Shown: positions 1 through 61,255 of the stretch, piece after piece
Layout: each line of letters starts with the position of its first letter
How positions within the stretch are numbered: the stretch's first letter is position 1
From: a virus
IMG/VR virus record: IMGVR_UViG_3300045988_081680
Coordinates: 1 to 61,255 of that record
Strand: one strand, 5' to 3'
DNA: 61,255 bases
The notes under the pieces: model-generated
Database searches by the model: none
Told to the model about the DNA's origin: nothing
What the model saw: only the letters and a program-made list of their open reading frames with translations
Made by a program: the position numbers and the translations under genes

Positions 1-55
1 TTTTAAAAGACGGTTCTGAAAGCCCGCCATTGTTTACGGACATTTGCATTGATTT
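1..55. repeat. 55-bp terminal overlap identical to 61201..61255 (circular or circularly permuted genome, probably an assembly overlap)
   Basis: First 55 nt (TTTTAAAAGACGGTTCTGAAAGCC...GCATTGATTT) equal the last 55 nt. The helicase ORF stays in frame across the junction. Confidence 0.9.
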
Positions 56-1232
56 AACCACAGTGGAATGTTTCAATCGCTTCATTGCAGAGGGTTATCT
101 TGCGCCGTTAATTCCTCGTTCCACTAATTACAAACTCGATATTGATGGTGTCCATATGCGTGGTGGAGAGTTTATCGAAAAAGAACTGCAATATGCAGTA
201 GATAAACATGAAATTACCGTCCAGGCGATTAAAGAGACACTCGAAGAGGGCGAGGACAGACGAAGCTGGCTTGTGTTTTGTGCGGGGATTGAACACGCTA
301 AAAACGCCGCTGACATTTTAAATGACATGGGCGTGCCTGCCGTTGCAGTGCATAGCAAAATGAGCAACAGCGAGCGCGACGAAGCTATCGCGGGTTTCAA
401 AAGCGGTAAATATCGAGCCATTACGAACAACGGCGTTTTAACCACAGGTTTTGACCATCCACCTATCGACTTAATCTTGTGTTTACGTCCAACGGCTTCT
501 CCTGTATTATGGGTGCAAATGTTAGGGCGAGGCACAAGGCCATATCCTGGAAAAGAAAACTGCTTAGTTTTGGACTTTGCAGATAATACCCGTCGCTTGG
601 GTGCAATTAACGACCCTGTCGTTCCTCGTAAAAAAGGTTCTAAATCTGGACCGCCACCTGTAAAAGAATGTCCTAAATGTAGAACATGGCAACACGCTTC
701 TGTTCGCTTTTGTACAGGTGTGGATAAGGACGGTATGCAATGCGACCATGAGTTTAAATTTGAGACTAAGCTGAAACAAGGTGCGTCCACCAAAGAGCTT
801 ATCAAAGGCGATATGCCTGTTGTGGAAGTGTTTAAAATAGACCATATTGCATACTCAACCCATCGTAAGGACGGACGACCGCCGATGATGAAAGTGTCTT
901 ATTATTGTGGTTATAAATGCTTCTCGGAATATGTGTGCATTGAGCATATCAACTATGCAGGCAAAAAAGCGCGCGATTGGTGGAGAGCAAGAACAGATAT
1001 TCCTGTTCCGGAGAAAACCGAACAGGCTTTGGAAATGACTAACCTTTTGAAAGTTCCGACTCATTTGCGAGTTTGGACTAACAAAAAGTATCCTGAGATT
1101 TTAGCAACCTGTTTTGATGGTACGGCTTTCGGTGTTGACGAAGATGATGGCTTCCGCCCAAACACTGAGAACTATGACGTTAAAACAACATCTCCTAACG
1201 AACCGTTAATTATTGATGATATTCCGTTTTAA
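1..1232 (+). CDS. SF2 DEAD/DEAH-type helicase, C-terminal part (continuation of the ORF starting at 60690)
   Basis: In frame with 60690..61200 after removing the 55-bp overlap (511+1232 nt = 581 codons). Helicase C-domain motifs HSKMSNSERDEAIAGFKSG, VLTTGFDHPPIDLI and QMLGRGTR. Confidence 0.85.
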   Translation, partial: LKDGSESPPLFTDICIDLTTVECFNRFIAEGYLAPLIPRSTNYKLDIDGVHMRGGEFIEKELQYAVDKHEITVQAIKETLEEGEDRRSWLVFCAGIEHAKNAADILNDMGVPAVAVHSKMSNSERDEAIAGFKSGKYRAITNNGVLTTGFDHPPIDLILCLRPTASPVLWVQMLGRGTRPYPGKENCLVLDFADNTRRLGAINDPVVPRKKGSKSGPPPVKECPKCRTWQHASVRFCTGVDKDGMQCDHEFKFETKLKQGASTKELIKGDMPVVEVFKIDHIAYSTHRKDGRPPMMKVSYYCGYKCFSEYVCIEHINYAGKKARDWWRARTDIPVPEKTEQALEMTNLLKVPTHLRVWTNKKYPEILATCFDGTAFGVDEDDGFRPNTENYDVKTTSPNEPLIIDDIPF

Positions 1233-1241
1233 GGAGTAGTT

Positions 1242-1916
1242 ATGTTTGTTTCTATTGATATGCAAAATTTGGAATTTTTGCATAAGCATTATAAAACATC
1301 TGTTTTATTTAACCTTGCCCATGTGGAAGTTCCAAAGTCCTTTGTTAAAATATTGGATACTGTTGCAGCGGTGCGAGGTTTAACGGAACTGGAAAAGAAA
1401 ATGATGGTTCGCAAATACGCACCGGACAGGTTACACGAAGACCATGAAGAAGTCCTTTGTGGTTATATTGATGCTATGCCTGTTGTTGATGTGGACGAAA
1501 GCGAACTTAAATTGCAGGCAAGTGTGATTCGTCCTACTGACAACCATGCTTACAAATACATTAAAGGCGCAATAACCAAGCGTAAACAGCCCACCGCGCC
1601 CCCGCCGTTAACGCCACAGGCGCAAAATACAACCGCCCCTACCGTTACCCTTGCCATGCAACAAACGCCCGCTATAACGCAAATAGAGCAAAGCGAGCAG
1701 TATCGCCAAATGACGCTAAAAACCAGAAGTTCTGGAGTGCGCGACGCAATTTGGGAAAAAGCAGACGAAATGTGGGAAGCCGCTGGTAAACCGACAGATT
1801 TAACCACAGTTCTCAAGTTACGCAAAGAGATTATGAACACGCTGGAAGAGGACGGGATTAAGCGTAACAGTGCTTCAAATGAGCTTGGCAAATGGCAGAA
1901 ACAACGTTTACAATAA
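1242..1916 (+). CDS. hypothetical protein; P/T/Q-rich linker plus a C-terminal ~58-aa domain shared with the 2013..2672 and 44987..45355 products
   Basis: ATG preceded by AAGGAG. C-terminus SGVRDAIWEKADEMWEAAGKPTDL...GIKRNSASNELGKWQKQ. Confidence 0.7.
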   Translation: MFVSIDMQNLEFLHKHYKTSVLFNLAHVEVPKSFVKILDTVAAVRGLTELEKKMMVRKYAPDRLHEDHEEVLCGYIDAMPVVDVDESELKLQASVIRPTDNHAYKYIKGAITKRKQPTAPPPLTPQAQNTTAPTVTLAMQQTPAITQIEQSEQYRQMTLKTRSSGVRDAIWEKADEMWEAAGKPTDLTTVLKLRKEIMNTLEEDGIKRNSASNELGKWQKQRLQ

Positions 1917-2012
1917 TTTACAAATAAAATCTGCACATCACTTGTGATTAGGGTTATACTTGCAACACCTAAACAAAACACCTGTTTCATTAACCAACAA
2001 AAAGGAAATATC

Positions 2013-2746: not shown

Positions 2747-3502
2747 ATGATAAACATTCAACCTATTGAGAAGTTTTTCCAGCCACCTCATCGAGCTATT
2801 GCAGTTCATTCTATCTTCTACACAATACAAGGTGAAGGTCCGTTTACAGGTCGTCCTGCCGTATTTGTCCGTTTAGCAGGTTGTAACTTGCAATGTCCAG
2901 GTTGTGATACAGATTACACGTCCAAACGCCACTTTATGTCCGCACAGGAAATTGTTGCTAAGATTTTGGAACTAGCGAATAAGGAAACCCTTGTGGTTAT
3001 TACAGGCGGCGAACCTTTCCGACAATACAACATTCGTTATCTTTTGGAACTGCTTGTTAAAATGGCTATGAATGTTCAGATTGAAACAAACGGCACATTA
3101 TCACCTGTTCCATTTGACAATGGCGTTGAAGAAGATTACAACTATTGCGCGATGGTAACAAACATGAACGTTCCCGGCATTTGCGGCGTGTATATCGTTT
3201 GTTCGCCTAAATCAGGACGTATTAATCCGTTGATTCGCAAATACGCCTGCGCCCTTAAATATGTGATTAAGCACAATGATGTGGATCCAATGGACTACTT
3301 ACCTATCCACAGCTTAGACCATCCTGTTGGCGTAAAAGTCGCACGTCCGTCCCCTGAATTTGAACGAACCATTTACGTTCAACCAATGGACGAACAGGAC
3401 GAAGCTAAGAACAAATTGAATTTACAGGAAGCTATCAATAGCTGTTTAAAAGGCGGTTATACGCTTCAAATCCAAACCCACAAGATTATTAACATGGAGT
3501 AA
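2747..3502 (+). CDS. queE: 7-carboxy-7-deazaguanine synthase (radical SAM)
   Basis: FYTIQGEGPFTGRPAVFVRLAGCNLQCPGCDTDY (CX3CX2C cluster motif); located in the que/dpdA cluster. Confidence 0.9.
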   Translation: MINIQPIEKFFQPPHRAIAVHSIFYTIQGEGPFTGRPAVFVRLAGCNLQCPGCDTDYTSKRHFMSAQEIVAKILELANKETLVVITGGEPFRQYNIRYLLELLVKMAMNVQIETNGTLSPVPFDNGVEEDYNYCAMVTNMNVPGICGVYIVCSPKSGRINPLIRKYACALKYVIKHNDVDPMDYLPIHSLDHPVGVKVARPSPEFERTIYVQPMDEQDEAKNKLNLQEAINSCLKGGYTLQIQTHKIINME

Positions 3503-3507
3503 CCACA

Positions 3508-4278
3508 ATGAGTAAAGCATTAGTGATTCTGTCCGGTGGACAAGATTCCACCACTTGTCTGTTCTGGGCGAAAAAGCACTTTGACGAAGTACACGCCGTA
3601 ACTTTTGATTACGGGCAACGCCATGCTATCGAGCTTGAAGCAGCTAAAAAAGTCTCCGAGATTGCAGATGTTGCATCTCACGAATTTATTAAAATTCCGG
3701 ACTGCCTGAAATCCACAAGCCCGTTGACTTCCGATACAAAATTGGAAAAATACGAATCGTTTGAACAAATGGAAAAAACTGTTGGTACAAAAGTTGAAAC
3801 CACTTTCGTTCCGATGCGTAATATGTTGTTCTTCACAATCGCAATGAACCGCGCAATCTATCTCGCCTGCGATACACTGGTTACAGGCATTTGTGCAACG
3901 GACAATGCAAACTATCCTGATTGTACAGCGCAGTTTTTGGAAGCCTTTAACCATGCCGCCAGCACATCTTTGGGTGTGAATAATTTCCAAGTCGTTGCGC
4001 CGTTATTGTTTAACACTAAATGCGAAACTGTCGAAATGGCGTATGAGATGCCGGATTGCTGGAAAGCGTTGGCATATTCTCACACGTCTTACGATGGCAA
4101 ATATCCGCCGACTGATAATAACCACAGTAATATCCTGCGGGCGCAAGGCTTTTTAGAAGCAGGATTACCTGACCCGTTGGTTGTTCGCGCTGTTATCGAG
4201 GGTTTAATGCCGATGCCGACAACACGAAATTACCGCGAAGAACTGTTTGACGAAACTCAAGCGATTATCGGTATTTAA
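3508..4278 (+). CDS. queC: QueC-like 7-cyano-7-deazaguanine synthase homologue lacking the canonical C-terminal 4-Cys zinc motif
   Basis: N-terminus ALVILSGGQDSTTCLFWA..VHAVTFDYGQRH and GICATDNANYPDCTAQFLEAFNHA. The C-terminus reads AYSHTSYDGKYPPTDNNHSNILRAQGF where QueC normally has CY..C..C..C. Confidence 0.85.
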   Translation: MSKALVILSGGQDSTTCLFWAKKHFDEVHAVTFDYGQRHAIELEAAKKVSEIADVASHEFIKIPDCLKSTSPLTSDTKLEKYESFEQMEKTVGTKVETTFVPMRNMLFFTIAMNRAIYLACDTLVTGICATDNANYPDCTAQFLEAFNHAASTSLGVNNFQVVAPLLFNTKCETVEMAYEMPDCWKALAYSHTSYDGKYPPTDNNHSNILRAQGFLEAGLPDPLVVRAVIEGLMPMPTTRNYREELFDETQAIIGI

Positions 4279-4949: not shown

Positions 4950-5458
4950 TGACTAAAACGTCCATCACTCGTTACCACGATATTTGTGCAGGGCATCGTG
5001 TCGTAGGACATGAGGGTAAATGTCGCCATTTGCACGGTCATAACTATCGTATCCATTTCACTTGCGAAGCAGACAAGTTGGACGATTTGGGTCGGGTTAT
5101 TGATTTCTCCGTTGTAAAAGACCGCCTTTGTATGTGGTTAGAAAAGAACTGGGATCACAAGTTCCTCGTGTGGGAAAAAGACCCTTTGGTCTCTACCATG
5201 CACGGTCTTATTAACAACGGGGATTACTCGTTGAAACAAGAACGTGAACAGTTTAACGAATCCCTTGTATGGTTGGATTTCAACCCTACCGCTGAAAACC
5301 TTGCAGAATATCTGTTAAAAGTTGTAGCACCTGCCCAATTAAAAGGGACAGGCGTGACGGTAACTCAAGTTACTATTGAAGAGACACGCAAATGCGCGGC
5401 AACAGTAACCACAGATAAATCTCAGCAATCTCGCGGCTTAATGCCGTTTATGGATTAA
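4949..5458 (+). CDS. queD: 6-carboxy-5,6,7,8-tetrahydropterin synthase
   Basis: CAGHRVVGHEGKCRHLHGHNYRI (PTPS/QueD signature). TAATG overlap with the upstream gene. Confidence 0.9.
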   Translation: MTKTSITRYHDICAGHRVVGHEGKCRHLHGHNYRIHFTCEADKLDDLGRVIDFSVVKDRLCMWLEKNWDHKFLVWEKDPLVSTMHGLINNGDYSLKQEREQFNESLVWLDFNPTAENLAEYLLKVVAPAQLKGTGVTVTQVTIEETRKCAATVTTDKSQQSRGLMPFMD

Positions 5459-6110: not shown

Positions 6111-7043
6111 ATGAAATTATACACGGCTGCCGTATATACGAACGAATATGTTCCAGGTATGCACAGCCCTATTCGTTGGGACGTGCTAAACGAACACGAA
6201 CGTAATATCGTATCCAATTTACCGAATATTCTTGAGTCTTACCACTACGTTTGGAAAGACAAATATGTAAAAGGTATGCGCGAGGACGGCGCAAAGATAT
6301 TTCTTGACAGTGGCGCATTCTCGGCGTACACACTAGGGGCAAAAATCCATCTACCAACGTATGTGGATTACATTAAACGCAATATCGACATTCTTCGCGT
6401 TGAGGACGGCGTTTTAATGGCTGCCGTATTGGACGGCATTGGCGACCCTCTCGAAACGTATCGTAACCAATTGTCTATGGAAGCGTTAGGCGTGAAGCCT
6501 ATGCCGTGTTTCCACGCGGGCGAAGACGAACGTTATCTGGAATGGTACATTCAAAACTACGACTACATCAGTTTGGGTGGCATGGTAGGAAGTTCTACTA
6601 AACAGCTTATGTTGTGGTTAGACAGGGTTTGGGATAAATACCTTGTTGATGGTTCAGGACGACCTCGCTTAAAAGTGCATGGCTTCGGTATTACTTCGAT
6701 TCCAATTATGGAACGTTATCCGTGGTGGAGTTGTGACTCGTCCTCTTGGATTCAAGCAGGTTCTTTCGGTTCCATTGTAACGCCAGAATTCGGGCCAATC
6801 GCTATATCAGATAAGTCTCCTCAACGCCACGATGCGGGTATGCACTTGTCCACATTAACGCCTGCTGAACAAGATAAAGTTTTAGAGGCTTTGGAACGTG
6901 CGGGCTTCACTTACGAAAGACTGTCGACAGTTTATCAAAGTCGCATGGCGTACAATCTTTGGGCTTATGGTGTAATTAACGCGATGATGAACGCGGCTAA
7001 CGATTACAACCATTTCAAAGCTCACAATCAGGAGTTATTCTGA
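6111..7043 (+). CDS. dpdA: DpdA-type DNA 7-deazaguanine transglycosylase (TGT paralogue)
   Basis: IFLDSGAFSAY..., ISLGGMVG..., KVHGFGITS..., WWSCDSSSWIQAGSFG; adjacent to folE/queDCE. Confidence 0.85.
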   Translation: MKLYTAAVYTNEYVPGMHSPIRWDVLNEHERNIVSNLPNILESYHYVWKDKYVKGMREDGAKIFLDSGAFSAYTLGAKIHLPTYVDYIKRNIDILRVEDGVLMAAVLDGIGDPLETYRNQLSMEALGVKPMPCFHAGEDERYLEWYIQNYDYISLGGMVGSSTKQLMLWLDRVWDKYLVDGSGRPRLKVHGFGITSIPIMERYPWWSCDSSSWIQAGSFGSIVTPEFGPIAISDKSPQRHDAGMHLSTLTPAEQDKVLEALERAGFTYERLSTVYQSRMAYNLWAYGVINAMMNAANDYNHFKAHNQELF

Positions 7044-7999
7044 TGTTAGATTCATTAAAATTTGTTCAAGGTGCTGTCGCTAAAAAGGACTTTGTTCCTG
7101 AAATGACACACTTTGAAATCAAAAACGGGCGCATTACCGCTTTTAACGGACAACTCGCTTTATCCTGTCCAATACCTCTCGATATCGACTGTAAGCCAAA
7201 AGCAGAAGATATGGTAAAAGCTATCTCAAAATGTCAAGAGACCGTTAGTATCACAATGACGGAAACTAACCGCCTGAGAATCCAGTCCGGCAAGTTTAAA
7301 GCATTTGTCAACTGCTTGGACGGCACATGGTTGGATATTCATCCAGAGGGTGTGGAAGTTCCTATTAACGGCGAGGACGTTGTAAAGGCATTCCACGTCC
7401 TTTTACCTTTTATCGGTAATGATGCTTCTCGTGCGTGGGGCATGGGCGTATTGCTGGACAGTTCTTCCGCTTTTGCCACAAATAACGTTTGCCTTGTCCA
7501 ATACTGGCTCGGTACGCCGTTTCCAAAACGTGTGAATATTCCAAGTGCTGCTGTAAAAGAAATGTTACGCATTAAAGAAGCACCGATGGGAATGATGCTT
7601 CACGACAATAGCATTACTTTTGTTTACAGTGGCGACAGATGGTTAAGAACTCAATTACTTGAGGATAACTGCCCAGATTACGTTGCCTTACTGGATGGAC
7701 AGAAAAGCAATCCTCACTCTTTAAACGAAGATGTATTTGAGGGCTTGGAAACAATCAAACCTTTTGTCGGTAAGTTTGGTAAAATCCATTTTGCAAACGG
7801 CATTATGTCCACTGAATCCGATTTAACCACAGGTGCAACATACGCCATAAGCGACCAAACCTTAAAAGGTATTTACCGCCATGAAATGTTCGCTTTGTTA
7901 AAAGGCGTTGCAAAGCAGATAGACCTTACAACATATCCTAAACCTTGCGCGTTCTTTGGGGACAATTTGCGCGGTTTGATTATTGGAATGAAAGAATGA
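7043..7999 (+). CDS. DnaN-like sliding clamp candidate
   Basis: 318 aa. LKFVQGAVAKKDFVPEMTHFEIKNGRITAFNGQLAL, AFATNNVCLV (cf. ATDGHRLA) and CPDYVALLDG (cf. FPDY). It lies immediately upstream of the polymerase with an ATGA overlap. Confidence 0.6.
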   Translation: MLDSLKFVQGAVAKKDFVPEMTHFEIKNGRITAFNGQLALSCPIPLDIDCKPKAEDMVKAISKCQETVSITMTETNRLRIQSGKFKAFVNCLDGTWLDIHPEGVEVPINGEDVVKAFHVLLPFIGNDASRAWGMGVLLDSSSAFATNNVCLVQYWLGTPFPKRVNIPSAAVKEMLRIKEAPMGMMLHDNSITFVYSGDRWLRTQLLEDNCPDYVALLDGQKSNPHSLNEDVFEGLETIKPFVGKFGKIHFANGIMSTESDLTTGATYAISDQTLKGIYRHEMFALLKGVAKQIDLTTYPKPCAFFGDNLRGLIIGMKE

Positions 8000-10023
8000 G
8001 AAAAGATGCAGTTGGTTTATTTTGGGAGGATATTCCTCATGTTATACGTTCTGAAAAGAAAAAGCAAAAAGTAAAAGCGAAAGTTGAACCGCCAGAACCC
8101 GTGTGGTTATCACCGGACTATTTGCCAAATTTGGAAGAAGCCCAAAATATGCAAGTTCCGTTGATGAACGACATGGAACTGCTTGCTGCTTGTGGTAACA
8201 AAGAACGCTTATTGTTCGACATTGAGACATACCCTAACTACTTCCTCGCCTCTTTCCGTAGCGTGGTTTCCGGTAAACTCGTCTATTTTGAAATGACAAA
8301 GGACAGTAACTTTGAAGCGGGTAAGTTGAAATGGATTCTGGATAATTTTACCACAGTCGGCTTCAATAGCCTGAATTATGACTTGCCTATTACTGCCCTT
8401 GCCGTAAATGGAGCAAATAACGGCTTGCTCAAACAAGCCAGCGACATGATTGTCGCTCAACAAATGCGCCCGTCTGACGTCTTAAAACATTTTGGCGTTA
8501 AAATGCCAGCTTGGGATAATATTGACCTTATCGAAGTTGCACCATCTTTCTCTTCGCTTAAAATTTACGGCGGACGTTTGCACACGCCACGTCTTGAGGA
8601 CTTACCGTTTGAAGTTAACCAAAACTTGTCCCGTGAACAAATGGACATTGTTAAATGGTATAACGTGGAAGCCGACTTAGTAGCGACAGGTTTTCTGCAC
8701 CAAACACTTCAAGAACATTTGAATCTGCGTTACGCAATGTCCAACGAAGAGGGCGTTGACTTGCGTTCAAAATCTGACGCGCAAATTGCCGAAGCGGTTA
8801 TTGCTGCCGAGTATTATCGCGCAACAGGTAGGCGCGCGAAACGTGTCGAAATCCCCATCGGTACGCAATACAAATATGACACGCCTCACTTTATTAAGTT
8901 CCAAACGCCGTTGATGCAAAGGGCTTTGGAAATTATCCAAAACAGTGTTTTTGAAGTTGGTGAAAGCGGTGCAATCGACTTGCCACCATCCATTAAAAAC
9001 TTACTTCTGGAAATTAATACGTCCGTTTATCGTATGGGTATTGGTGGGTTACACTCGACCGAAAAATGCCAAAGTGTAAAAGAGGACGCTGAATACATTC
9101 TTAGGGATAAGGACGTAACGTCTTTCTATCCGTACATTATTCTTAATCAGGGGTTATACCCTGAACATCTTGGTCCAATATTCCTGCAAATTTACCGTGC
9201 CATTGTAAACCGTCGTGTTGATGCAAAAGCTCGCGGAGACAAGGTTGTAGCGGACAGCCTTAAAATCGTAATTAATGGTTCTTACGGTAAATTTGGTTCT
9301 AAATATTCTATTGTTTATTCTCCTAAACTTATTATCCAAACTACACTAACAGGACAGCTATCCTTACTGATGTTAATCGAACGTCTTGAGTTGGCTGGAA
9401 TCCGTGTGGTTAGCGCAAACACTGACGGCATTGTTATCCATTGCAAACGCACAATGCAGGATACAATGGAAGCCATTGTTAAACAGTGGGAACTGGATTG
9501 TGCTTTCCAAACAGAAGAAACTGTTTATTCTGCTATATACTCAAGAGATGTAAATAACTACATCGCGGTTAAACCTGACGGGTCTGTTAAAACTAAAGGC
9601 GCGTTTGCTAATCCGTGGTCTGATACTAAAAACTTGGCTGACCGCCTCAAGAAAAACCCTACAAACATTGTCTGCATTGATGCCGTGTGTTCATATTTAA
9701 CCACAGGTAGGCTCGTGGACGATTACATTTTAAATTGCAAGGATATAACTAAATTCCTGACGGTTCGTAGTGTTACGGGCGGGGCTGTTAAAGTGTATCC
9801 TGACAAAACAGATTATCTAGGTAAATCCATCCGTTGGTATTATGCCAAAAATATGGACGGAGAAATTGTATATGCTAAGTCTGGAAAGAAAGTACCTCGA
9901 ACAGACGGTGCTAAACCGTGCCTAACGTTACCAAGTGAATTTCCAGACGATATTAACCACACTTGGTATATCGAAGAGGCACACAAAATCCTAAAAGAAA
10001 TTGGAGCAGTTCATGAAAATTGA
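7996..10023 (+). CDS. family-B DNA polymerase with 3'-5' exonuclease domain
   Basis: Exo I FDIETYPNYF, Exo II NSLNYDLPI, Exo III YNVEADLV. Pol A DVTSFYPYII, Pol B KIVINGSYGKFG, Pol C SANTDGIVI. Confidence 0.9.
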   Translation: MRKDAVGLFWEDIPHVIRSEKKKQKVKAKVEPPEPVWLSPDYLPNLEEAQNMQVPLMNDMELLAACGNKERLLFDIETYPNYFLASFRSVVSGKLVYFEMTKDSNFEAGKLKWILDNFTTVGFNSLNYDLPITALAVNGANNGLLKQASDMIVAQQMRPSDVLKHFGVKMPAWDNIDLIEVAPSFSSLKIYGGRLHTPRLEDLPFEVNQNLSREQMDIVKWYNVEADLVATGFLHQTLQEHLNLRYAMSNEEGVDLRSKSDAQIAEAVIAAEYYRATGRRAKRVEIPIGTQYKYDTPHFIKFQTPLMQRALEIIQNSVFEVGESGAIDLPPSIKNLLLEINTSVYRMGIGGLHSTEKCQSVKEDAEYILRDKDVTSFYPYIILNQGLYPEHLGPIFLQIYRAIVNRRVDAKARGDKVVADSLKIVINGSYGKFGSKYSIVYSPKLIIQTTLTGQLSLLMLIERLELAGIRVVSANTDGIVIHCKRTMQDTMEAIVKQWELDCAFQTEETVYSAIYSRDVNNYIAVKPDGSVKTKGAFANPWSDTKNLADRLKKNPTNIVCIDAVCSYLTTGRLVDDYILNCKDITKFLTVRSVTGGAVKVYPDKTDYLGKSIRWYYAKNMDGEIVYAKSGKKVPRTDGAKPCLTLPSEFPDDINHTWYIEEAHKILKEIGAVHEN

Positions 10024-10276
10024 AGCGAAAAATGACGGCAAACTTTATACCGTTATCCGCCTTTTACAGGACGAACAAGGAACGTACCTGTTGATAGCTA
10101 GTGAAAGGCTGGATTCCTCTGCACCGTATGTGGTTATTGATGGCATGGTGCATCACGGGCGTTTACACGCAAGATGTCCTAATTGCCAAGAGAAATACTG
10201 GATGCCGTTGAACCAGACTCTTGAAGAGTTTAAGCAAGGTTGGCGTGTAACAGATATTAGACGTTTTAGAAGTTAA
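10013..10276 (+). CDS. hypothetical protein (87 aa)
   Basis: ATG 6 nt after TTGGAG; overlaps the polymerase end by 11 nt. Confidence 0.6.
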   Translation: MKIEAKNDGKLYTVIRLLQDEQGTYLLIASERLDSSAPYVVIDGMVHHGRLHARCPNCQEKYWMPLNQTLEEFKQGWRVTDIRRFRS

Positions 10277-10574: not shown

Positions 10575-10617
10575 TTTAACCACAAACGCCCCGCATACGC
10601 GCGGCACGGAGCTACAA

Positions 10618-47147: not shown

Positions 47148-47259
47148 AAAATAATAATAATAAATAATATATATATTAAATAGATATATATAAGTATATA
47201 TATTTTATAAGTTTTTTATAATTAAATTTAATTAATTTTATTTTTTATTATTTTTTTTA
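47148..47259. other. 112-nt tract with 0 C and 3 G (~97% A+T): DNA-unwinding element / divergent promoter region candidate
   Basis: Read directly. Preceded by AATACCCC x2 (47127, 47140). Lies between the first leftward and first rightward genes. Confidence 0.6.
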
Positions 47260-47582: not shown

Positions 47583-47594
47583 TGTGGTTATAAA
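47583..47594 (+). promoter_or_regulatory. extended octamer TGTGGTTATAAA, 153 nt upstream of the first rightward gene
   Basis: Flanked by the CTTACCCTTAC (47570..47580) / GTAAGGGTAAG (47647..47657) inverted repeat. Confidence 0.4.
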
Positions 47595-48156: not shown

Positions 48157-48942
48157 ATGGCAGATGTAGTTAATGTTTTAACCACAGATAATGTGGAACA
48201 CGAGACTGAAGTTAAGTCAGAAGAAGATGTTTTGATGCAGGCGTTGATTCGAGAGTTTCCGACTGCGGTTGCAGAAGTTGTGGAAAATATCGCCAGCCTC
48301 AAAAAAGACGCTATGATGCTGGACGTTGACAAAATTACTGTCGACTACCTCAAAAGTAAGTTAGACGGTCTGCGGGCGAAGCGTGGTCGTGTGGTTATGA
48401 AGACGGCAGAATCGCCGTTAATGCTGATGCGTAACTTGGCATACTTAGATAAGTTAAGTCATGCAGACTTGGAATTTGAAATGGTGCAGTCTTACTTGAC
48501 CGACTATTACCGTATCTTTGGACAAGAACTTGCTTTGGTTGAGCCGCCGTTGTGGATTACAGAAGCAGACTTTGCCGAGTATATGAAATTGCGGGCGAAG
48601 TGTTCGCCATCGCATATTAAACGACCGAACTTTGTGCTGTCATTGCAATACTTAATGAGCCGACCGCGAGCCTTAGCCGTAGGTACGACATTCAAAGAGC
48701 TTGTAGAAACTGGTGCAGAAAGCGTCAACTTTGAAAAAGAAGAAAAGTTAATCAGTTACCTTAAATACAACCGGAACCAGAAACGTAAACGTAATGGCGA
48801 AGTTATGCTCCACGACTTGTACCATAAAGAATATAAGGCTAAACTGGCGGAACGCAAAAACTATTTGGCGAAGATTAACGCCGAACTTGAGTATTTGCGA
48901 GATAGATATCTTGAACAAAAAGCGATTGACTTAGGCGAATAA
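48157..48942 (+). CDS. hypothetical protein (261 aa)
   Basis: ATG 8 nt after GGAGA. Confidence 0.7.
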   Translation: MADVVNVLTTDNVEHETEVKSEEDVLMQALIREFPTAVAEVVENIASLKKDAMMLDVDKITVDYLKSKLDGLRAKRGRVVMKTAESPLMLMRNLAYLDKLSHADLEFEMVQSYLTDYYRIFGQELALVEPPLWITEADFAEYMKLRAKCSPSHIKRPNFVLSLQYLMSRPRALAVGTTFKELVETGAESVNFEKEEKLISYLKYNRNQKRKRNGEVMLHDLYHKEYKAKLAERKNYLAKINAELEYLRDRYLEQKAIDLGE

Positions 48943-52683: not shown

Positions 52684-53248
52684 AATCGAATTGGACACTA
52701 AGTTTGGTTTAGACCGTGTTCTAACCTTTAACGTATCCATGCCTGCCGAACAAATCGGGTTAGTACGGAACTTTCTTATTTACCGCGACCATGTGGTTAC
52801 AACGGGTCGTGATGTTGAGGGTCATCCGTCTTTTAACGTAACAATAAGTCCTGATGAAGTCTTAAGCCTATTGCTTGTGGACAAAACCGATGAAGAGGAA
52901 GAGGTTGTAGACCGTATTCTCAACGTCATGTTTGCGATGCTGCGACAACATAAACCTGTGGAACGTCGCTTCCATTTACCATTCTTTCCAGAAGAAGTGA
53001 TTAAAAACTGGTTTGGGGTGTTCTCATGGCGTATTCAAAAGAACCGTATTAAAAATGCCTTGTATTTGTCCGGTTATTTTTGCAAGCAGGGCGGTTACGA
53101 TAATCGTTTAGCAATAGAAGATATTATTCTTGGCGTAAACATGGATATGGCAGAGCAAAACGCGTCCTATCTAGACCATTGCCGTTTTTGCAAACACGAA
53201 TTTTTTAACACAGGACTTGAAATTTTAACAGGTCTTGTGGAACTTTAA
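52667..53248 (+). CDS. paralogue 2 of the three-member family
   Basis: MKHAVKIELDTKFGLDRVLTFNVS..., ...RRFHLPFFPEEVIKNWF. Confidence 0.7.
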   Translation: MKHAVKIELDTKFGLDRVLTFNVSMPAEQIGLVRNFLIYRDHVVTTGRDVEGHPSFNVTISPDEVLSLLLVDKTDEEEEVVDRILNVMFAMLRQHKPVERRFHLPFFPEEVIKNWFGVFSWRIQKNRIKNALYLSGYFCKQGGYDNRLAIEDIILGVNMDMAEQNASYLDHCRFCKHEFFNTGLEILTGLVEL

Positions 53249-53266: not shown

Positions 53267-54367
53267 ATGCAAGTAAAAGTTTTATTGGATACTAAATACG
53301 AAGAACATCGTGTAACCACAGTGGAAGTTTCCGGTAAGCGTGAATCTTTAAAGTTTCTTTTGAAGATTCCCGCTTTCGACGAATACCGTTTAACTGGAAA
53401 TCATAACTGCACCAGTTCTCGACGGTTTAATATTGTTATGCCAACAGACCCTGTCGTGGAAAACGACGATTTGGTTCTCGTTTTCACTTCCACAGATTGG
53501 AAAAGTGTTTTTGAGGGTCTCAACGATACTGTCAACACTAATCCTGTTGAACGCGAAATTGTGCGTGAAATTAAACGCCAAATCGAGCAATCAGTTCCTT
53601 ATGAATCAAAATATCACTTTCCAGAAATTCCACGCGAAGAAGTTGATTCTTATGTTAAAAAAGGTGAAGATGTTGTATCTGGTGAAATGCGGACCGTATA
53701 TGAACGTCTTTGCCGTGTTTCCGGTATTTTGTTAAAATTTCCAGAACAAAAAGGTCTCAGCGTAAGTAAACTTTTCGCAAATTCTTTTACATTTACAGAA
53801 CGCTTTGAGACGTTAGACGTGTTTGAGCATTCCTACGTTTTTGAAAAAGGTATTGTTGGACATTTCCCGTTAAATGTTGGTGTATCCTTAATAAAATGTG
53901 CATTTTTTGATGCAAATGTAGCGTCCAACATTGCCGAGTGGTTCCGACGTGCCAAAGAGTTCCCAACCAAAGACGACCTGCTTGTCCAAATTGGTTGCCA
54001 TTATGAAGAGATGGCAGAGTTTACCGATGCGGTAGATAAAAAGCATAACGTCAAGTCCCATACGACAGGTTTGCTTGAAGATAACGCACACGGCTGGAAA
54101 AACAAAATGGATTGCTCCAAAGAACGCTTGGAAGCAATCCTCAATGATAAAGAGCGCAAACGTGAAGTAATTGACGCTTTGGCTGATACTGTGGTTACAG
54201 CTATCGGCGTCCTGTACGAACTGACGGGCGACCCTATTGGTGTCCTTTCAGAAGTAAATCGTAGCAACTGGTCTAAGTTCGATTTCGGTGTGCCAGTATT
54301 TGATGAAAACGGTAAAATCAAAAAAGGCGTGACTTACAGCAAGCCGGATTTAGACCGTTTTATTTAA
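53267..54367 (+). CDS. paralogue 3 fused to a C-terminal MazG-like nucleoside-triphosphate pyrophosphohydrolase domain
   Basis: MQVKVLLDTKYEEHRVTTVEVS..., ...SKYHFPEIPREEVDSYV. C-terminus HYEEMAEFTDAV...VIDALADTVVTAIGVLYELTGDP..VNRSNWSKF...GKIKKGVTYSKPDL. Confidence 0.75.
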   Translation: MQVKVLLDTKYEEHRVTTVEVSGKRESLKFLLKIPAFDEYRLTGNHNCTSSRRFNIVMPTDPVVENDDLVLVFTSTDWKSVFEGLNDTVNTNPVEREIVREIKRQIEQSVPYESKYHFPEIPREEVDSYVKKGEDVVSGEMRTVYERLCRVSGILLKFPEQKGLSVSKLFANSFTFTERFETLDVFEHSYVFEKGIVGHFPLNVGVSLIKCAFFDANVASNIAEWFRRAKEFPTKDDLLVQIGCHYEEMAEFTDAVDKKHNVKSHTTGLLEDNAHGWKNKMDCSKERLEAILNDKERKREVIDALADTVVTAIGVLYELTGDPIGVLSEVNRSNWSKFDFGVPVFDENGKIKKGVTYSKPDLDRFI

Positions 54368-54423: not shown

Positions 54424-54467
54424 TATTATAACCACACTTAAACAACAAACCAAAAAGGAGTAAGTCA

Positions 54468-55704: not shown

Positions 55705-56043
55705 ATGAAAGTGATTGTTAACGGTATTGTGGAAGAATTGACCGCAAAAAGCTCTCAACACAAAGACATTTCTGAATCTTTGGCGCGTGGTATGGACCGT
55801 TCCTTAAAACACAAATGGAACGAAGAAGCACAGGCTTACGAACTTTCCGAAAGCGAACTCGACTACTGGAAAGACGTGTTTAAACGCCAAGACGAGTTCG
55901 TAGACCGTTTGGACCGTTTGACACCTCGCTTTGGTGAAGAAGCCGTTGCTGATGTTTTGCGTAAAGTAACCACAACAGAATTTCCGCAATACTACATCGC
56001 AATGAACGAAGAACTTGATATTGCATTTGGCGAGGGTTCTTGA
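55705..56043 (+). CDS. hypothetical protein (112 aa)
   Basis: AAAGG upstream. Confidence 0.65.
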   Translation: MKVIVNGIVEELTAKSSQHKDISESLARGMDRSLKHKWNEEAQAYELSESELDYWKDVFKRQDEFVDRLDRLTPRFGEEAVADVLRKVTTTEFPQYYIAMNEELDIAFGEGS

Positions 56044-56648
56044 TGTTTATAACGGTGATGACTGATGCCAGTTATTGTAGCCGTTCTCGTTCTGCAGGCT
56101 ATGGTTTTTGGATAGCCTGCGAGCGAGGTAAAAAAGCAGGAAGTGGATTTTACACGTTTGATGTTGTTAGCGCGTGTGAAGCAGAAATGCTTGCCGTTGC
56201 AGACGCAATATATAACGGCATAAAAAGTTTCCTGATTCACAAAGGCGATTCTATACTGGTGCAATTAGATAGTATTCCTGCTATAAGCGCGTTTACTGGA
56301 GAACGTATTCCTAAACAGGAAAAGGAGAACCAAGCGATAGAATATTTGTGGTTACTGAAGAATCAGTTTAACCTTGAGATTAGTTTTAAACACGTTAAAG
56401 GGCATTCTAATTTAGAGGATGCGAGAAGTAAATCCAATGCTCATTGTGATAGTGCTGCAAAAGCAGCGTTAAAGCAGGTAAGACAAAAGAAAGGTCGTCA
56501 AAATGGCAAATTTAAAACCAATGCTGGCAGTGGAAGCAGAACTGGAAAAATTGGAGTATCCGGTACTAGTAAGCGCAAAGTTAGACGGTATCCGAGCGGT
56601 TATAAAAGATGGAAAGGTTTTAAGTCGAAGTCTAAAACCAATTCCTAA
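56043..56648 (+). CDS. RNase H (type 1 fold) with a basic C-terminal tail encoded in overlap with the ligase gene
   Basis: VMTDASY, ACEAEMLAVADA, LVQLDS, VKGHSN...NAHCDSAAKAA. TGATG start overlap. Confidence 0.75.
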   Translation: MFITVMTDASYCSRSRSAGYGFWIACERGKKAGSGFYTFDVVSACEAEMLAVADAIYNGIKSFLIHKGDSILVQLDSIPAISAFTGERIPKQEKENQAIEYLWLLKNQFNLEISFKHVKGHSNLEDARSKSNAHCDSAAKAALKQVRQKKGRQNGKFKTNAGSGSRTGKIGVSGTSKRKVRRYPSGYKRWKGFKSKSKTNS

Positions 56649-57411
56649 TAAGTTTGTCCAAAGTGAGATTTCAAAATTTCCGTTGTTAAATGGTTTGGAC
56701 GGTGAATTAATTGTTGGTTCACCAGTGGACAAAAACTGTATGCAGAACACCACAAGTGGGGTTATGTCCCAAGAAGGTGAACCTGATTTTACATACTTCG
56801 TGTTCGATTATTGGACTAACCCTGAAGTTCCGTATCACTTAAGATTCGACCATTTATCCTTATGGGAAGTTAGAGGTTGTTTCAAACAGACAAAAGGACG
56901 TGTTAAAGTTCTTCCTCATGAAATTGTACACAACAAAGAACAGCTTCTTTGGTTTGAAGAGCGCGTTCTTTCAGAAGGTTTTGAGGGCGTGATGATTCGC
57001 AAACGCGACGCCCCGTACAAATACGGTCGTTCTACCGTCAAGCAAGGATACTTGCTGAAGTTAAAACGGTTTGCGGACTCAGAAGCAGAAGTTGTGGAAG
57101 CAGAAGAGTTATTGCATAACCACAATGAAGCAACACTGGACGCACTCGGCAATACCGTCCGCTCAGACCATAAAGACGGCAAGGTTGGCGGTGATACACT
57201 TGGCGCACTTGTGGTCAAAGATATTACAACAGGTATTACGTTCAAAATCGGAACTGGTTTTGATGCTACAACACGCCAAGAGCTTTGGGATATGCACAAA
57301 GAGGGCGCACTTGTAGGAAAGATTGTTAAGTACAAATCGTTCCTTATTGGTGTAAAAGAAGCTCCACGTTTCCCAGTTTTTCTCGGCTTTCGCGATAAAT
57401 TAGATATGTAA
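56503..57411 (+). CDS. ATP-dependent DNA ligase
   Basis: Adenylation motif VSAKLDGIRAV (KxDG), GFEGVMIRK, LLKLKRF. Confidence 0.9.
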   Translation: MANLKPMLAVEAELEKLEYPVLVSAKLDGIRAVIKDGKVLSRSLKPIPNKFVQSEISKFPLLNGLDGELIVGSPVDKNCMQNTTSGVMSQEGEPDFTYFVFDYWTNPEVPYHLRFDHLSLWEVRGCFKQTKGRVKVLPHEIVHNKEQLLWFEERVLSEGFEGVMIRKRDAPYKYGRSTVKQGYLLKLKRFADSEAEVVEAEELLHNHNEATLDALGNTVRSDHKDGKVGGDTLGALVVKDITTGITFKIGTGFDATTRQELWDMHKEGALVGKIVKYKSFLIGVKEAPRFPVFLGFRDKLDM

Positions 57412-57481: not shown

Positions 57482-57826
57482 ATGCACGTCATCTGTAATA
57501 ACCACAGTAATATTGAGGCGCGAGAAGCAGCCGACTATATTAACAAACTCGCAGGAGATGCGGGTTATGGTCCAGAGTCTTTTGACTGGTTTTTAGCGCA
57601 AATTATGTCTTGCGCGGAAGGCATTCGTGAGGACTTGGACATTGACTCAACCGACGACAAATATATCTTAGCTGGTTACGCAAACCGTGAAGAGTATTTG
57701 GAATGCTTGGCTGAAGACTTGGATATGGACTACGAACACGTTAAGGCAACTGCAGAACTTCTCGGTCAGGACGAGGACTTTGATATGCTTGTTGTTGCTT
57801 TAAATGCCGCAGGCGGGGTACAATAA
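57482..57826 (+). CDS. acidic hypothetical protein (114 aa)
   Basis: AAGGAG upstream; strongly acidic composition. Confidence 0.65.
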   Translation: MHVICNNHSNIEAREAADYINKLAGDAGYGPESFDWFLAQIMSCAEGIREDLDIDSTDDKYILAGYANREEYLECLAEDLDMDYEHVKATAELLGQDEDFDMLVVALNAAGGVQ

Positions 57827-58939: not shown

Positions 58940-59734
58940 ATGGCAACATTAAATTTTGACGCAAATGCAATTCAACCTGACACCTCTTTTGACCCGATTC
59001 CGGCTGGCTGGTATAACGCCATTATTGACGAATCCGAAATGAAACCTACTCGAGACGGTTCCGGTGCTTACTTGGCATTGCGATTCAACGTTATTGACGG
59101 TCAATATGCTGGTCGTAAAGTGTTTACCCGTCTGAACTTGCGTAACCAAAACCCTGTCGCGCAAGACATTGCTCAAAAACAACTGTCTAGCATCTGCCAC
59201 GCTGTCAACGTTTTGAATGTTCAAGACAGTTCCCAGTTACACGCCTTGCCTTTGCAAATCCGCGTTAAAGTTACAAACGACCCGACAGGTCAATACGAAC
59301 CGTCAAACGAAATTTCCGGTTATAAAGCCATCGGTGCTGCAAACGGACAAGGTGCTGCCGCGCCGTTGGCTGCCCCTGCATACAGCGCACCCGCCGCGCC
59401 TGTTGCACCAGTTGCACCCGCTGCCCCTGTTGCACCTGTACAGCCTCAAACTGCACCCGCTGGCGGTACATGGCAACCGCCTGCAAACGCGCAGCAACAA
59501 TGGGCACAGCCTGCACAGCCTGCACAGCCTGCACAGCCTCAACCCGCGCCCGCTCCACAATGGGTAAACGGTACACCAACACAGCCCGCACCAACCGCGC
59601 CACAAGCAACCGCGCAACAAATGCAAACTGTTGAAGTGACACCAGAACAAGCTGCCGCTATCTCAGCCGCTCAAAGTAAGACCGTTCCGTGGGCGCAACC
59701 TCAAGAGCAAACTCAAGAACAAGCTCAACAATAA
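58940..59734 (+). CDS. DUF669-type ssDNA-binding protein candidate with a Pro/Ala/Gln-rich tail
   Basis: FDPIPAGWYNAIIDESEMKPTRDGSGAYLALRFNVIDGQYAGRKVF; follows the Sak4-like ATPase, as is usual for this pair. Confidence 0.7.
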   Translation: MATLNFDANAIQPDTSFDPIPAGWYNAIIDESEMKPTRDGSGAYLALRFNVIDGQYAGRKVFTRLNLRNQNPVAQDIAQKQLSSICHAVNVLNVQDSSQLHALPLQIRVKVTNDPTGQYEPSNEISGYKAIGAANGQGAAAPLAAPAYSAPAAPVAPVAPAAPVAPVQPQTAPAGGTWQPPANAQQQWAQPAQPAQPAQPQPAPAPQWVNGTPTQPAPTAPQATAQQMQTVEVTPEQAAAISAAQSKTVPWAQPQEQTQEQAQQ

Positions 59735-59745
59735 TCCGGCTTAAC

Positions 59746-59773
59746 AAACAGGCTTGCTTCGGCGAGCCTGTTT
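59746..59773 (+). terminator. rho-independent terminator (UUCG tetraloop)
   Basis: AAACAGGCTTGC-TTCG-GCGAGCCTGTTT followed by CATTT. Confidence 0.7.
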
Positions 59774-59790
59774 CATTTAAAGGACTTAAA

Positions 59791-60690
59791 ATGCAATTAG
59801 CAAGAAAGACAATGCACAAAATAGATAGCATGGTCGCACAGGATCAGGGAAGTGCCTATCGAGTGTGGTTAGGACAGGTATTACCACATATTGGCGATGC
59901 GTATCGTGCAGGAAACGATGGACATCGTGGACACATGGGTGCGTCCTTAATCGGTAAAGAATGCGCCCGTTCAATTTGGTACGACTTTTTCTGGGCAACA
60001 AAATCCGCGTTTGATGGACGTATGGTACGTCTGTTTAATCGTGGGCATTTGGAAGAGGGACGTTTTATCGCCCTGCTTCTGATGATTGGTTGCCAAGTTT
60101 GGCAACAAGACGAAAACGGTAATCAATTTCGTATTTCCGACGTAGAGGGTCATTTTGGCGGTTCTGGTGACGGCGTTGCATTAGGCGTTCCGGACATTGA
60201 CCCTAATACCTATTGTCTATTAGAATTTAAAACACACTCAGAAAAATCTTTTAGAGAGTTGCAAGCCAAAGGCGTTCAAGAAGCAAAATGGGAACATTAT
60301 GTTCAAATGAACGTCTATATGCGTAAGATGGGTCTTGCTGTTGCCCTTTACATGGCGGTAAATAAGAACACAGACGAAATCCATGCTGAAATTGTAACCT
60401 TAAATCCAGAGGTTGCAGACCAATATATCGACCGCGCCCATAAGATTGTGTGGTTATCAGAGCCACCAAAGAAATTAAGCGAGTCTCCTGGATTTTATAA
60501 ATGCCGTTTTTGTAACCACAGACCTGTCTGCCACCTTAACGCAAAACCTGATAAAAACTGTCGAACTTGCACTTATTCTAGACCAGATTCAGATGGTAAG
60601 TGGGTTTGCGTCATTGATTTTGTTGAAGCCGAACTTTCTAAAGAATTGCAATTAACAGGTTGCGACCGTTACAAGCAAAGGAAAATGTGA
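59791..60690 (+). CDS. PD-(D/E)XK exonuclease, Cas4/RecB-like with C-terminal Cys cluster
   Basis: GHFGGSGDGV...LLEFKTHS...YVQMNVY and CRFCNHRPVC...C..C. Confidence 0.75.
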   Translation: MQLARKTMHKIDSMVAQDQGSAYRVWLGQVLPHIGDAYRAGNDGHRGHMGASLIGKECARSIWYDFFWATKSAFDGRMVRLFNRGHLEEGRFIALLLMIGCQVWQQDENGNQFRISDVEGHFGGSGDGVALGVPDIDPNTYCLLEFKTHSEKSFRELQAKGVQEAKWEHYVQMNVYMRKMGLAVALYMAVNKNTDEIHAEIVTLNPEVADQYIDRAHKIVWLSEPPKKLSESPGFYKCRFCNHRPVCHLNAKPDKNCRTCTYSRPDSDGKWVCVIDFVEAELSKELQLTGCDRYKQRKM

Positions 60691-61255
60691 TGCAACTTCG
60701 AGATTACCAACAAGAATCCGTAGACGCAATTTGGTCGTACTTTATGTCCGGTAAAACTGGGAATCCTTTAGTAGCACTTCCGACCGGAACGGGCAAGTCT
60801 GTAGTAATTGCCGGATTCCTTAAAAGTGTTTATGATAAGTTCCCCGAACAGCGTATTATGATGTTGACACACGTTAAGGAACTTATCGAGCAAAACTATT
60901 CAAAACTGATGGCAATGTGGCAATTTGCACCTGCTGGGATTTATTCCGCAGGTTTAAATCGCAAGGACGTACACGCGCCCATCACTTTCGCTGGTATCGC
61001 TTCCGTTGCCAAAAAAGCGCACTTGTTTGGACACATTGACTTAATCATTATTGACGAAGCCCACTTGGTAAGCCCTAATGACGAAACAATGTATCAGAAG
61101 TTTATTGGCGAACTTAAAAAAGTTAATCCGTACATTAAGGTTATTGGATTAACAGCGACTCCGTATCGTTTAGGACATGGTAAATTAACAGATGGAAAAG
61201 TTTTAAAAGACGGTTCTGAAAGCCCGCCATTGTTTACGGACATTTGCATTGATTT
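60690..61255 (+). CDS. SF2 DEAD/DEAH-type helicase, N-terminal part (continues at nt 1 after removing the 55-bp overlap)
   Basis: LRDYQQESV, Walker A LPTGTGKS, DEAH box IIIDEAHL, LTATPYR. TGATG overlap with the exonuclease. Confidence 0.88.
   Translation, partial: MQLRDYQQESVDAIWSYFMSGKTGNPLVALPTGTGKSVVIAGFLKSVYDKFPEQRIMMLTHVKELIEQNYSKLMAMWQFAPAGIYSAGLNRKDVHAPITFAGIASVAKKAHLFGHIDLIIIDEAHLVSPNDETMYQKFIGELKKVNPYIKVIGLTATPYRLGHGKLTDGKVLKDGSESPPLFTDICID

Follow-up and report, generated by a model that had tools for sequence, protein, structure and literature searches.

A genome-wide octamer as the candidate dispersed priming site of a phage primase-polymerase

The window analysed here, the whole 61,255-nucleotide stretch of IMG/VR virus record IMGVR_UViG_3300045988_081680, is the complete genome of a siphovirus-type, Queuovirinae-like phage, and it carries 77 exact copies of one non-palindromic octamer, TAACCACA or its complement TGTGGTTA (47 copies of TAACCACA on the + strand and 30 on the - strand). 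The octamer is probably a dispersed template recognition site of the phage's own archaeo-eukaryotic primase (AEP)-type primase-polymerase, used for lagging-strand priming. This reading draws on the excess of the word, its purifying selection and its conservation in a phage lineage irrespective of host, on the homology of the primase to that of phage NrS-1 through the template-reading domain and the match of the word to the mapped NrS-1 sites, and on a per-strand regularity and a strand bias of the same direction in ten genomes.

Positions 61201-61255 of the window are an exact duplicate of positions 1-55 (an assembly overlap), the unique genome being a 61,200-bp circle, and no copy was counted twice despite this 55-nt terminal overlap. 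The initial annotation had listed 74 copies, all of them at correct coordinates, and had overlooked three, at 21597 (+), 23696 (-) and 28600 (-), the sign here being that of the strand carrying TAACCACA. Its expectation of only a few copies by chance is supported, since dinucleotide shuffles (n=100) gave 2.50 +/- 1.48 copies with a maximum of 7 and Markov models of orders 1-3 gave 2.7-3.5 copies (z = 39 at order 3). Markov orders 4-6 (expected 11, 27 and 64 copies) are unusable as a background, since most occurrences of the word's sub-words come from the word itself, which inflates these expectations. The octamer is the top-ranked 8-mer of the window, and the runners-up (ATAACCAC with 33 copies, AACCACAG with 29, and others) are its one-base extensions. 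All 24 one-mismatch variants occur at background, with 0-10 copies each; their rarity had been described correctly, with counts slightly too low for GAACCACA (2 copies) and TTACCACA/TGTGGTAA (10 copies). The copies are spread over the whole window at a combined mean spacing of 0.8 kb, which sets them apart from origin iterons, whose copies lie within a few hundred bp.

Seventy of the 77 copies lie within open reading frames (ORFs), where they use five reading frames, namely all those that do not create a TAA stop, and fall in 51 different peptide contexts. When synonymous codons were shuffled in all ORFs (200 runs), 14.0 +/- 2.6 copies were obtained (maximum 24), a figure that includes the 7 intergenic copies untouched by the shuffle; the excess was not reproduced. 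The flanks hold little information, in line with the earlier description of them as unconserved, although on the TGTGGTTA strand A is favoured at position -2 and disfavoured at -1, the preference at -2 being common to the clades of related phages described below. In four IMG/VR contigs with 88-93% nucleotide identity to the window, 94 of 98 site-by-contig comparisons were intact, against 59% predicted from the flanks, and the eight site columns were 98.9% identical against 93.7% for the flanking +/-20 nt. The octamer itself is under purifying selection. The codon shuffle, the use of all permitted frames and the selection on the eight columns relative to their flanks together bear out the earlier proposal that the constraint acts on DNA and not on protein.

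The most over-represented 8-mer was determined for each of several related phages. It is TGTGGTTA in CAjan of E. coli (41 per 50 kb), whereas TGTGGTTA and TGTGGTCA occur together in 9g of E. coli (TGTGGTCA 30, TGTGGTTA 17), in NP1 of Pseudomonas, with 58% GC (TGTGGTCA 34, TGTGGTTA 9), and in R7M of Alteromonas (TGTGGTTA 28, TGTGGTCA 16). The corresponding words are TGTGGGCA in DLP_1 of Stenotrophomonas (19) and RcSpartan of Rhodobacter (16), ATGTGGG in Loki of Acinetobacter (22), TGTGGGC in phiAxp-1 of Achromobacter (26), and TGTGGCTA (13) together with TGTGGTCA (14) in BcepGomr of Burkholderia. Thus, phages of E. coli, Pseudomonas and Alteromonas share TGTGGTYA, and relatives lacking DpdA share TGTGGGC(A). 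The octamer, taken as the unit in the initial annotation, is the unit in the window phage; the unit of the lineage as a whole is a TGTGG core followed by a clade-specific triplet. The word is at background in bacteria, with 2 + 1 copies in 50 kb of E. coli K-12 and 9 copies in 80 bacterial species (1.25 Mb in all). A word family that is kept in phages of unrelated hosts and is at background in bacteria excludes an uptake sequence, a host Chi and a DnaA box, and the same pattern lends no support to the DNA-uptake and Chi/KOPS-type (FtsK-orienting polar sequence) words suggested earlier. The reader of the word is phage-encoded and not host-encoded. Full-text searches of the literature library used, and the papers describing CAjan, iggy, R7M and Loki, yielded no report of this word.

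The tetramer GTGG is itself 6-9-fold depleted in DLP_1 (L009) and RcSpartan (L011), where 63 and 45 copies are present and base composition would predict about 385 and 412. TGTGGT is wholly absent from both genomes and GTGG is left almost only within TGTGGGC(A/T); the depletion is milder in Loki and phiAxp-1, and there is none in the window. In DLP_1 and RcSpartan it looks like selection against partial sites.

The proposed reader of the word is the product of ORF 48944-51346, in which an AEP primase/polymerase core and a helix-bundle domain (HBD) occupying approximately residues 1-300 are followed by a DUF3987-type helicase. Pfam matched DUF3987 and NrS1-1_pol-like_HBD, the latter with an E-value of 1.5e-5 that lies under the gathering score. 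The NrS-1 primase was matched by tblastn with an E-value of 2e-7, and phmmer against PDB matched 7ola_A (a 797-residue DNA primase) and the NrS-1 N300 structures 6a9w/6k9a/7rr3/7rr4. A profile built from seven phage sequences aligned by hhalign with NrS-1 residues 10-284, a range that spans the catalytic core and the HBD, with 99.9% probability (E 3.9e-33). Catalytic residues and HBD columns are invariant in the multiple alignment of the primase-polymerases, and Tyr265 of the window enzyme is aligned with NrS-1 Y261, a residue said to read the 8-nt site (PMC8775771, a review).

The template sites of NrS-1 have been mapped biochemically as 5'-TTTGGTTA-3' and 5'-GTGG-3', GTG being essential and the HBD being required for priming (PMC8718748). 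The word 5'-TGTGGTTA-3' matches TTTGGTTA at 7 of 8 bases and includes GTGG, and the initial statement that it matched no named motif therefore does not stand. On the template 5'-T15-G-TTTGGTTA-3' the NrS-1 primer begins with pppC opposite G (PMC8718748 supplement), so that synthesis begins at the base 5' of the site and heads away from it. In the NrS-1 genome (L008), positions 17050-17460, about 400 bp directly downstream of the primase gene, hold dense iterons of the GGTTACAC(TT) type on both strands, one strand of the field reading TGTGGTTAcacTTTTGGTTAcacTTTGGGTTAcac. This field contains exact TGTGGTTA on both strands, TGTGGTCA, GTGGTTA and the lone genomic TTTGGTTA, of which one copy was counted as against two stated in PMC7102993. 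The window enzyme, which by analogy would read TGTGGTTA, coexists in the phage with a separate family B DNA polymerase (PolB) and probably acts as a primase rather than a replicase.

The distribution of the word was further examined strand by strand. In the window, the strand with 47 copies has a mean gap of 1.3 kb, a largest gap of 3.0 kb and a coefficient of variation (CV) of spacing of 0.55, and the strand with 30 copies has a mean gap of 2.1 kb. In ten genomes the per-strand CV is 0.24-0.57 on 16 of 20 strands, compared with about 1 for random placement, and the copies are thus more evenly spaced than chance, as had been claimed for the window. Pooling the strands gives CVs of 0.47-0.75, the per-strand values being usually lower; greater regularity per strand is the opposite of the expectation for an orientation-blind duplex site. 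After all ten genomes had been put in like orientation, the TGTGG strand was found to coincide more often with the sense strand of the structural genes (236:145, in 10/10 genomes, p = 3.6e-6). Pooled densities per kb are 0.45 on the sense strand of the late arm, 0.24 on its antisense strand, and 0.40 and 0.39 on the two early-arm strands. Spacing and bias are consistent with a site that acts on one strand, as on a single-stranded template. Avoidance of the TAA stop was considered as the source of the 47:30 split (sense:antisense 42:28 = 3:2); it cannot be the whole explanation, because the bias extends to clades whose word is free of stop codons whichever way it is read, and TGTGGGC, one such word, shows the same or a stronger bias. 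In addition, the absolute strand predicts word density better than the sense or antisense orientation does. The closest pair in the window genome, two opposite-strand copies 30 bp apart (33468-33505), lies in the structural module between ORFs 32796-33467 and 33514-34545.

The association of the word with the primase and with neighbouring genes was compared across genomes. Psp6, which has a related PolB and a different primase, lacks a TGTGG word, and BcepGomr, in which the AEP N-terminus is joined to a different, RepA-type helicase, keeps TGTGG words. The TGTGGGC clade (DLP_1, RcSpartan, Loki and phiAxp-1) has neither a DpdA nor a ligase homologue. A wider sample of 62 de-replicated IMG/VR loci was found with the primase alignment, mostly from temperate phages in which none of PolB, clamp and Sak4 lies within +/-10 kb. 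The most over-represented 8-mer holds GTGG/CCAC in 19 of these 62 loci, compared with 3 out of 64 bacterial control loci (Fisher p = 1e-4); among 4-mer cores, CCAC ranks first. In one locus (L068), TGTGGAAG is dispersed regularly on one strand at 3100, 4055, 5347, 6588, 7730, 13421, 15151, 16807 and 18120. Three prophage-type contigs (L045, L050 and L061) carry eight copies of GGGTTACT on both strands within about 400 bp directly after the primase gene, approximately 2.3-2.7 kb downstream from where the primase match starts; these clusters are candidate origin iterons by analogy with the NrS-1 field. Among the shared genes, it is the primase that the word family tracks, which counts in favour of a primase site.

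The mechanism proposed from these data is that the HBD of the phage primase would bind 5'-TGTGGTTA-3' on single-stranded template DNA, and that the primer would start opposite the base just 5' of the word and run away from it, as in the homologous NrS-1 enzyme. As chance alone would place an 8-base site no more than about twice in 61 kb, selection would have spread copies through the genome and into its genes, using every permitted frame. A replisome consisting of PolB, clamp, RNase H and ligase, the genes for all of which the phage itself encodes and which are counted in support of priming, would thereby be given a start site for each Okazaki-type fragment. Forks would cross the late arm mainly along late transcription, the sense strand being the lagging-strand template there, and would cross the early arm in both directions. 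Priming sites were one of the options offered in the initial annotation and are the one favoured by the evidence.

Several observations weigh against this interpretation. The NrS-1 genome has no scattered 8-mer, with 1 copy of TTTGGTTA and 4 of TGTGGTTA genome-wide, and the window enzyme is only about 27% identical to that of NrS-1. A substrate said to hold the '8-nt recognition sequence' is without TTTGGTTA (PMC7102993), and NrS-1 primes well on GTGG alone, which leaves a need for the full octamer in the window phage unexplained. A simple one-direction model fails, since copies occur on both strands and the bias amounts to no more than about 62:38; the two-phase fork geometry set out above fits the strand densities, yet is post hoc, and decomposition of the skew at third codon positions (GC3) gave no consistent replication component and no independent fork direction. 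In a gene-by-genome matrix the lytic clades co-inherit the primase with PolB, clamp, SF2 helicase, exonuclease and Sak4, and presence or absence therefore cannot isolate the primase within them. The loci lacking PolB are partial, at most 21 kb long, and hold other word variants, and the more distant homologue-bearing phages PSA, JD001 and CP-T1 showed no hyper-abundant word.

An unlikely alternative is that a phage protein binds the word in duplex DNA, the word being either a dispersed loading or origin site for the helicase part of the primase-polymerase or the target of another DNA-binding protein with a role in organising, condensing or marking the genome; priming would be indirect or irrelevant. 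The iteron clusters of related words beside the primase gene in NrS-1, L045, L050 and L061, the many copies on both strands and the perfect inverted pair of extended sites around the AT-rich block within the window's main non-coding region would suit such a site. For a duplex site, the pooled strands should be the most regular, whereas the reverse was usually found, and the genome-wide strand bias also speaks against it. A further point against it is BcepGomr, where the TGTGG word persists despite the other helicase type. Small helix-turn-helix (HTH) genes directly upstream of the primase in several relatives could have supplied the binding protein, but these ORFs were rejected as readers of the word, since they belong to two unrelated families, neither of which has a detectable homologue in the window, and that of 9g is a primase N-terminus. 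The 9g ORF in question (gp26, L014 21992-22231, annotated as hypothetical) starts with MLELFPQEIKQYEQWAVCG, the conserved N-terminus of the primase-polymerases, and the 9g primase gene thus appears from its sequence to be split or mis-annotated in its record.

It is highly unlikely that the word marks single-strand interruptions in packaged DNA, as in T5 and the Pseudomonas phages tf and Rembedalsseter, although the nick motifs of such phages (WACTRTGAC in tf and Rembedalsseter) are likewise lineage-conserved 8-9-mers inside genes (PMC11780129) and the window phage encodes a DNA ligase. Those motifs are tied to physical nicks and number about 13 (13 in Rembedalsseter), on one strand and concentrated unevenly in part of the genome, whereas the 77 copies in the window lie on both strands, with some opposite-strand copies just 30 bp apart; the nick-site option of the initial annotation was judged unlikely on these grounds. 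Moreover, the relatives of the TGTGGGC clade are without a ligase homologue, a conserved nickase was not detected, nicking would not account for the resemblance to a primase site and, as a weaker point, the native nanopore studies of CAjan and iggy make no mention of nicks.

There is a very slim chance that the word is a Chi-like signal modulating a helicase-nuclease, be it the phage SF2 helicase with its PD-(D/E)XK exonuclease or host RecBCD/AddAB, with the effect of protecting or recombining phage DNA. Chi words are over-represented, strand-specific 5-8-mers read on single strands, and the helicase adjoins a Cas4-like exonuclease in the module. Nevertheless, the same word is found in phages whose hosts belong to different orders, its background frequency in E. 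coli excludes a host Chi, the regular 1-2 kb spacing is not predicted, and five IMG/VR loci with dispersed TGTGG words (L029, L037, L068, L069 and L073) have no helicase homologue within +/-10 kb. Chi, KOPS, DNA uptake sequences (DUS) and uptake signal sequences (USS) resemble the present case in that one short non-palindromic word is strongly over-represented inside genes through selection at the DNA level; they are words of host chromosomes read by host machinery, unlike the phage-lineage-specific, host-independent, regular and mildly biased (about 62:38) word described here. An uptake sequence was rejected as the word is not hyper-abundant in the bacteria tested (E. coli K-12 and the 80 species), the window's own host not being identified. 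A KOPS-type polar word was rejected because both strands are populated genome-wide (47:30 in the window, 236:145 pooled), in place of a near-complete polarity that reverses at origin and terminus. The DnaA box TTATCCACA is one base from the word, but its core TATCCACA has 7 copies, at background, against 77 for TAACCACA, and the clade variants TGACCACA and TGCCCACA depart further from the box.

That 7-deazaguanine modification by DpdA and the preQ0 pathway has the word as its target, or as a non-target that is protected, is scarcely credible: FolE, QueD, QueE, QueC and a DpdA homologue are encoded in the window, yet the word family occurs without DpdA in DLP_1, RcSpartan, Loki and phiAxp-1, the published target motifs are short (a strict GA motif for iggy and two distinct motifs for CAjan), the papers on CAjan and iggy do not mention the word, and a modification target would not select a 30-fold excess or a regular spacing. 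The base-modification site suggested in the initial annotation is likewise not supported, as relatives keep the word family without DpdA/preQ0 genes.

The strand of TGTGGTYA that would be read holds neither GA nor GGC, and the TGTGGGC of the clade without DpdA contains GGC. GA (in iggy) and GGC are reportedly the contexts modified by the DpdA enzymes of CAjan and iggy. Priming word and DNA modification may be co-adapted or the pattern may be a coincidence, TGTGGCTA of BcepGomr being a counter-example.

Among known systems, T7 gp4 recognises GTC-based pentamers and T4 gp61 recognises GTT or GCT. These primases belong to the DnaG/TOPRIM class, unrelated to AEP, and their sites of 3-5 nt are abundant by chance; we know of no genome-wide seeding or regular spacing of them. 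The role proposed here, a start signal for lagging-strand primers on a single-stranded template, is the same as that of the T7 and T4 sites (PMC12839067). ORF904 of pRN1 is alike in that its HBD selects a template triplet 3' of the start, the triplet GTG lying inside TGTGGTTA (as cited in PMC8718748), and differs in that a 3-nt site is frequent by chance and needs no enrichment and in that pRN1 is an archaeal plasmid replicon. The closest system is NrS-1, with an enzyme homologous in both the primase/polymerase core and the HBD and an 8-nt site; its words are clustered within about 400 bp beside the primase gene, unlike the window word with about one copy per 0.8 kb on both strands, and its 8-mer has been treated in published discussion as a possible origin signal (PMC8718748, PMC7102993).

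The proposed reading is thus only in part novel, the 8-nt site of NrS-1 and sequence-specific priming as such being already known. Sequence-specific priming is textbook biology, and the primase sites known to us are of 3-5 bases, ubiquitous by chance. Not encountered in the literature searched, or in the papers describing these phages, is a genome-wide, regularly spaced and strongly conserved 8-mer priming word common to the Queuovirinae and several other genera. If this holds, an 8-base site has obliged an entire phage lineage to carry priming sites within its genes, regularly spaced and kept by strong purifying selection, the starts of lagging-strand synthesis would be hard-coded, and the size and position of Okazaki fragments would be testable by recoding the phage. 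It would also explain a signature common to the Queuovirinae and several siphovirus genera, which could aid the classification of metagenomic contigs and the prediction of primase specificity from sequence alone. Natural primase and word pairs would then form a panel for engineering enzymes for primer-free DNA amplification, and synonymous changes at the words may not be neutral, a caution for the recoding or synthesis of therapeutic phages.

A further and more doubtful suggestion, offered tentatively, is that the priming word serves as a self-mark by which the phage replisome copies phage DNA and ignores host or competitor DNA. Efficient starts would be confined to a word that is nearly missing from the host (about 2 per 50 kb in E. 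coli) and present every 1-2 kb on each phage strand. Word and primase would co-evolve as lock and key, with triplets TTA/TCA in the Queuovirinae, GCA in Septimatrevirus, Titanvirus and Lokivirus, and AAG and others in temperate lineages, and selection in DLP_1 and RcSpartan would have purged bare GTGG outside complete sites. The length of Okazaki fragments would then be written in the sequence and not set by replisome kinetics.

The coordinates of the word copies and of the genes and elements associated with replication are collected in Table 1. The largest non-coding stretch of the window (46110-47750, GC 37%) separates the divergent late (-) and early (+) gene units and contains a perfect 17-nt direct repeat, TTTGTCGGGGTAACAAA, at 46981 and 47024. 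Within it, two extended word copies, TTTATAACCACA (46813-46824) and TGTGGTTATAAA (47583-47594), form a perfect 12-nt inverted pair that brackets the AT-only palindromic block. This block is a candidate unwinding element of an origin, and primers from the two copies of the pair would converge on it, as at a bidirectional origin.

Table 1. Word copies and replication-associated features of the window. For word copies, the strand is the one bearing 5'-TGTGGTTA-3', the proposed template strand.
Feature	Position	Strand	Remarks
Word copy	55..62	-	
Word copy	439..446	-	
Word copy	906..913	+	
Word copy	1458..1465	+	
Word copy	1801..1808	-	
Word copy	2992..2999	+	
Word copy	3500..3507	-	intergenic
Word copy	4119..4126	-	
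Word copy	5133..5140	+	
Word copy	5406..5413	-	
Word copy	6613..6620	+	
Word copy	7824..7831	-	
Word copy	8102..8109	+	
Word copy	9405..9412	+	
Word copy	9698..9705	-	
Word copy	9954..9961	-	
Word copy	10129..10136	+	
Word copy	10577..10584	-	intergenic
Word copy	12520..12527	-	
Word copy	13687..13694	-	
Word copy	14228..14235	+	
Word copy	14305..14312	-	
Word copy	16078..16085	+	sole site lost in three relatives
Word copy	16252..16259	-	
Word copy	16496..16503	+	
Word copy	18613..18620	-	
Word copy	19325..19332	+	
Word copy	20027..20034	+	
Word copy	20110..20117	-	
Word copy	21597..21604	-	overlooked in the initial annotation
Word copy	21785..21792	+	
Word copy	22319..22326	-	
Word copy	23696..23703	+	overlooked in the initial annotation
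Word copy	24347..24354	-	
Word copy	25129..25136	-	
Word copy	26345..26352	+	
Word copy	27860..27867	-	
Word copy	28600..28607	+	overlooked in the initial annotation
Word copy	29056..29063	-	
Word copy	29663..29670	-	
Word copy	30759..30766	-	
Word copy	32681..32688	-	
Word copy	33468..33475	+	intergenic, 30 bp from opposite-strand copy at 33498
Word copy	33498..33505	-	intergenic
Word copy	34944..34951	-	
Word copy	35658..35665	+	
Word copy	36134..36141	-	
Word copy	36920..36927	-	
Word copy	38824..38831	-	
Word copy	39072..39079	+	
Word copy	39391..39398	-	
Word copy	40596..40603	-	
Word copy	41124..41131	-	
Word copy	42697..42704	-	
Word copy	43051..43058	-	
Word copy	45794..45801	-	
Word copy	46573..46580	-	
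Word copy	46817..46824	-	intergenic, left arm of 12-nt inverted pair around AT-rich block
Word copy	47583..47590	+	intergenic, right arm of same 12-nt inverted pair
Word copy	47915..47922	+	
Word copy	48179..48186	-	
Word copy	48390..48397	+	
Word copy	49024..49031	+	
Word copy	49383..49390	-	
Word copy	50415..50422	-	
Word copy	50965..50972	+	
Word copy	52792..52799	+	
Word copy	53313..53320	-	
Word copy	54190..54197	+	
Word copy	54429..54436	-	intergenic
Word copy	55967..55974	-	
Word copy	56347..56354	+	
Word copy	57117..57124	-	
Word copy	57499..57506	-	
Word copy	59864..59871	+	
Word copy	60449..60456	+	
Word copy	60513..60520	-	
Primase-polymerase/helicase, 800 aa	48944..51346	+	proposed reader of the word
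Family B DNA polymerase (PolB)	7945..10023	+	tblastn matches to phage records annotated DNA polymerase B
Sliding-clamp-like processivity factor	7043..7999	+	PHROG 947, E 3e-66
RNase H (primer removal)	56040..56648	+	PHROG 531, E 2e-27
ATP-dependent DNA ligase (would join fragments)	56503..57411	+	Pfam DNA_ligase_A_M, OB_2
DUF669 protein	58940..59734	+	Pfam DUF669, E 6.5e-16; 9g homologue annotated single-stranded DNA-binding protein
AT-only palindromic block	47148..47258	.	inside largest non-coding stretch

PolB would extend the primers; its ORF is listed from an upstream TTG, and its real start is probably later. The window also encodes a Sak4-type ATPase, the SF2 helicase and the PD-(D/E)XK exonuclease (a weak match), the helicase ORF being unbroken across the circle junction as an open stretch of 596 aa from 60642 to 1232. 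A search for tRNA genes in the window found none. The preQ0 cluster (2747-7043) includes a plain QueC of 256 aa, as against the glutamine-amidotransferase-fused QueC annotated in NP1, 9g and R7M, a difference that points to dPreQ0 and not dG+ as the modification of the DNA. A gene for a YdjM-like membrane protein (4279-4686) lies inside this cluster.

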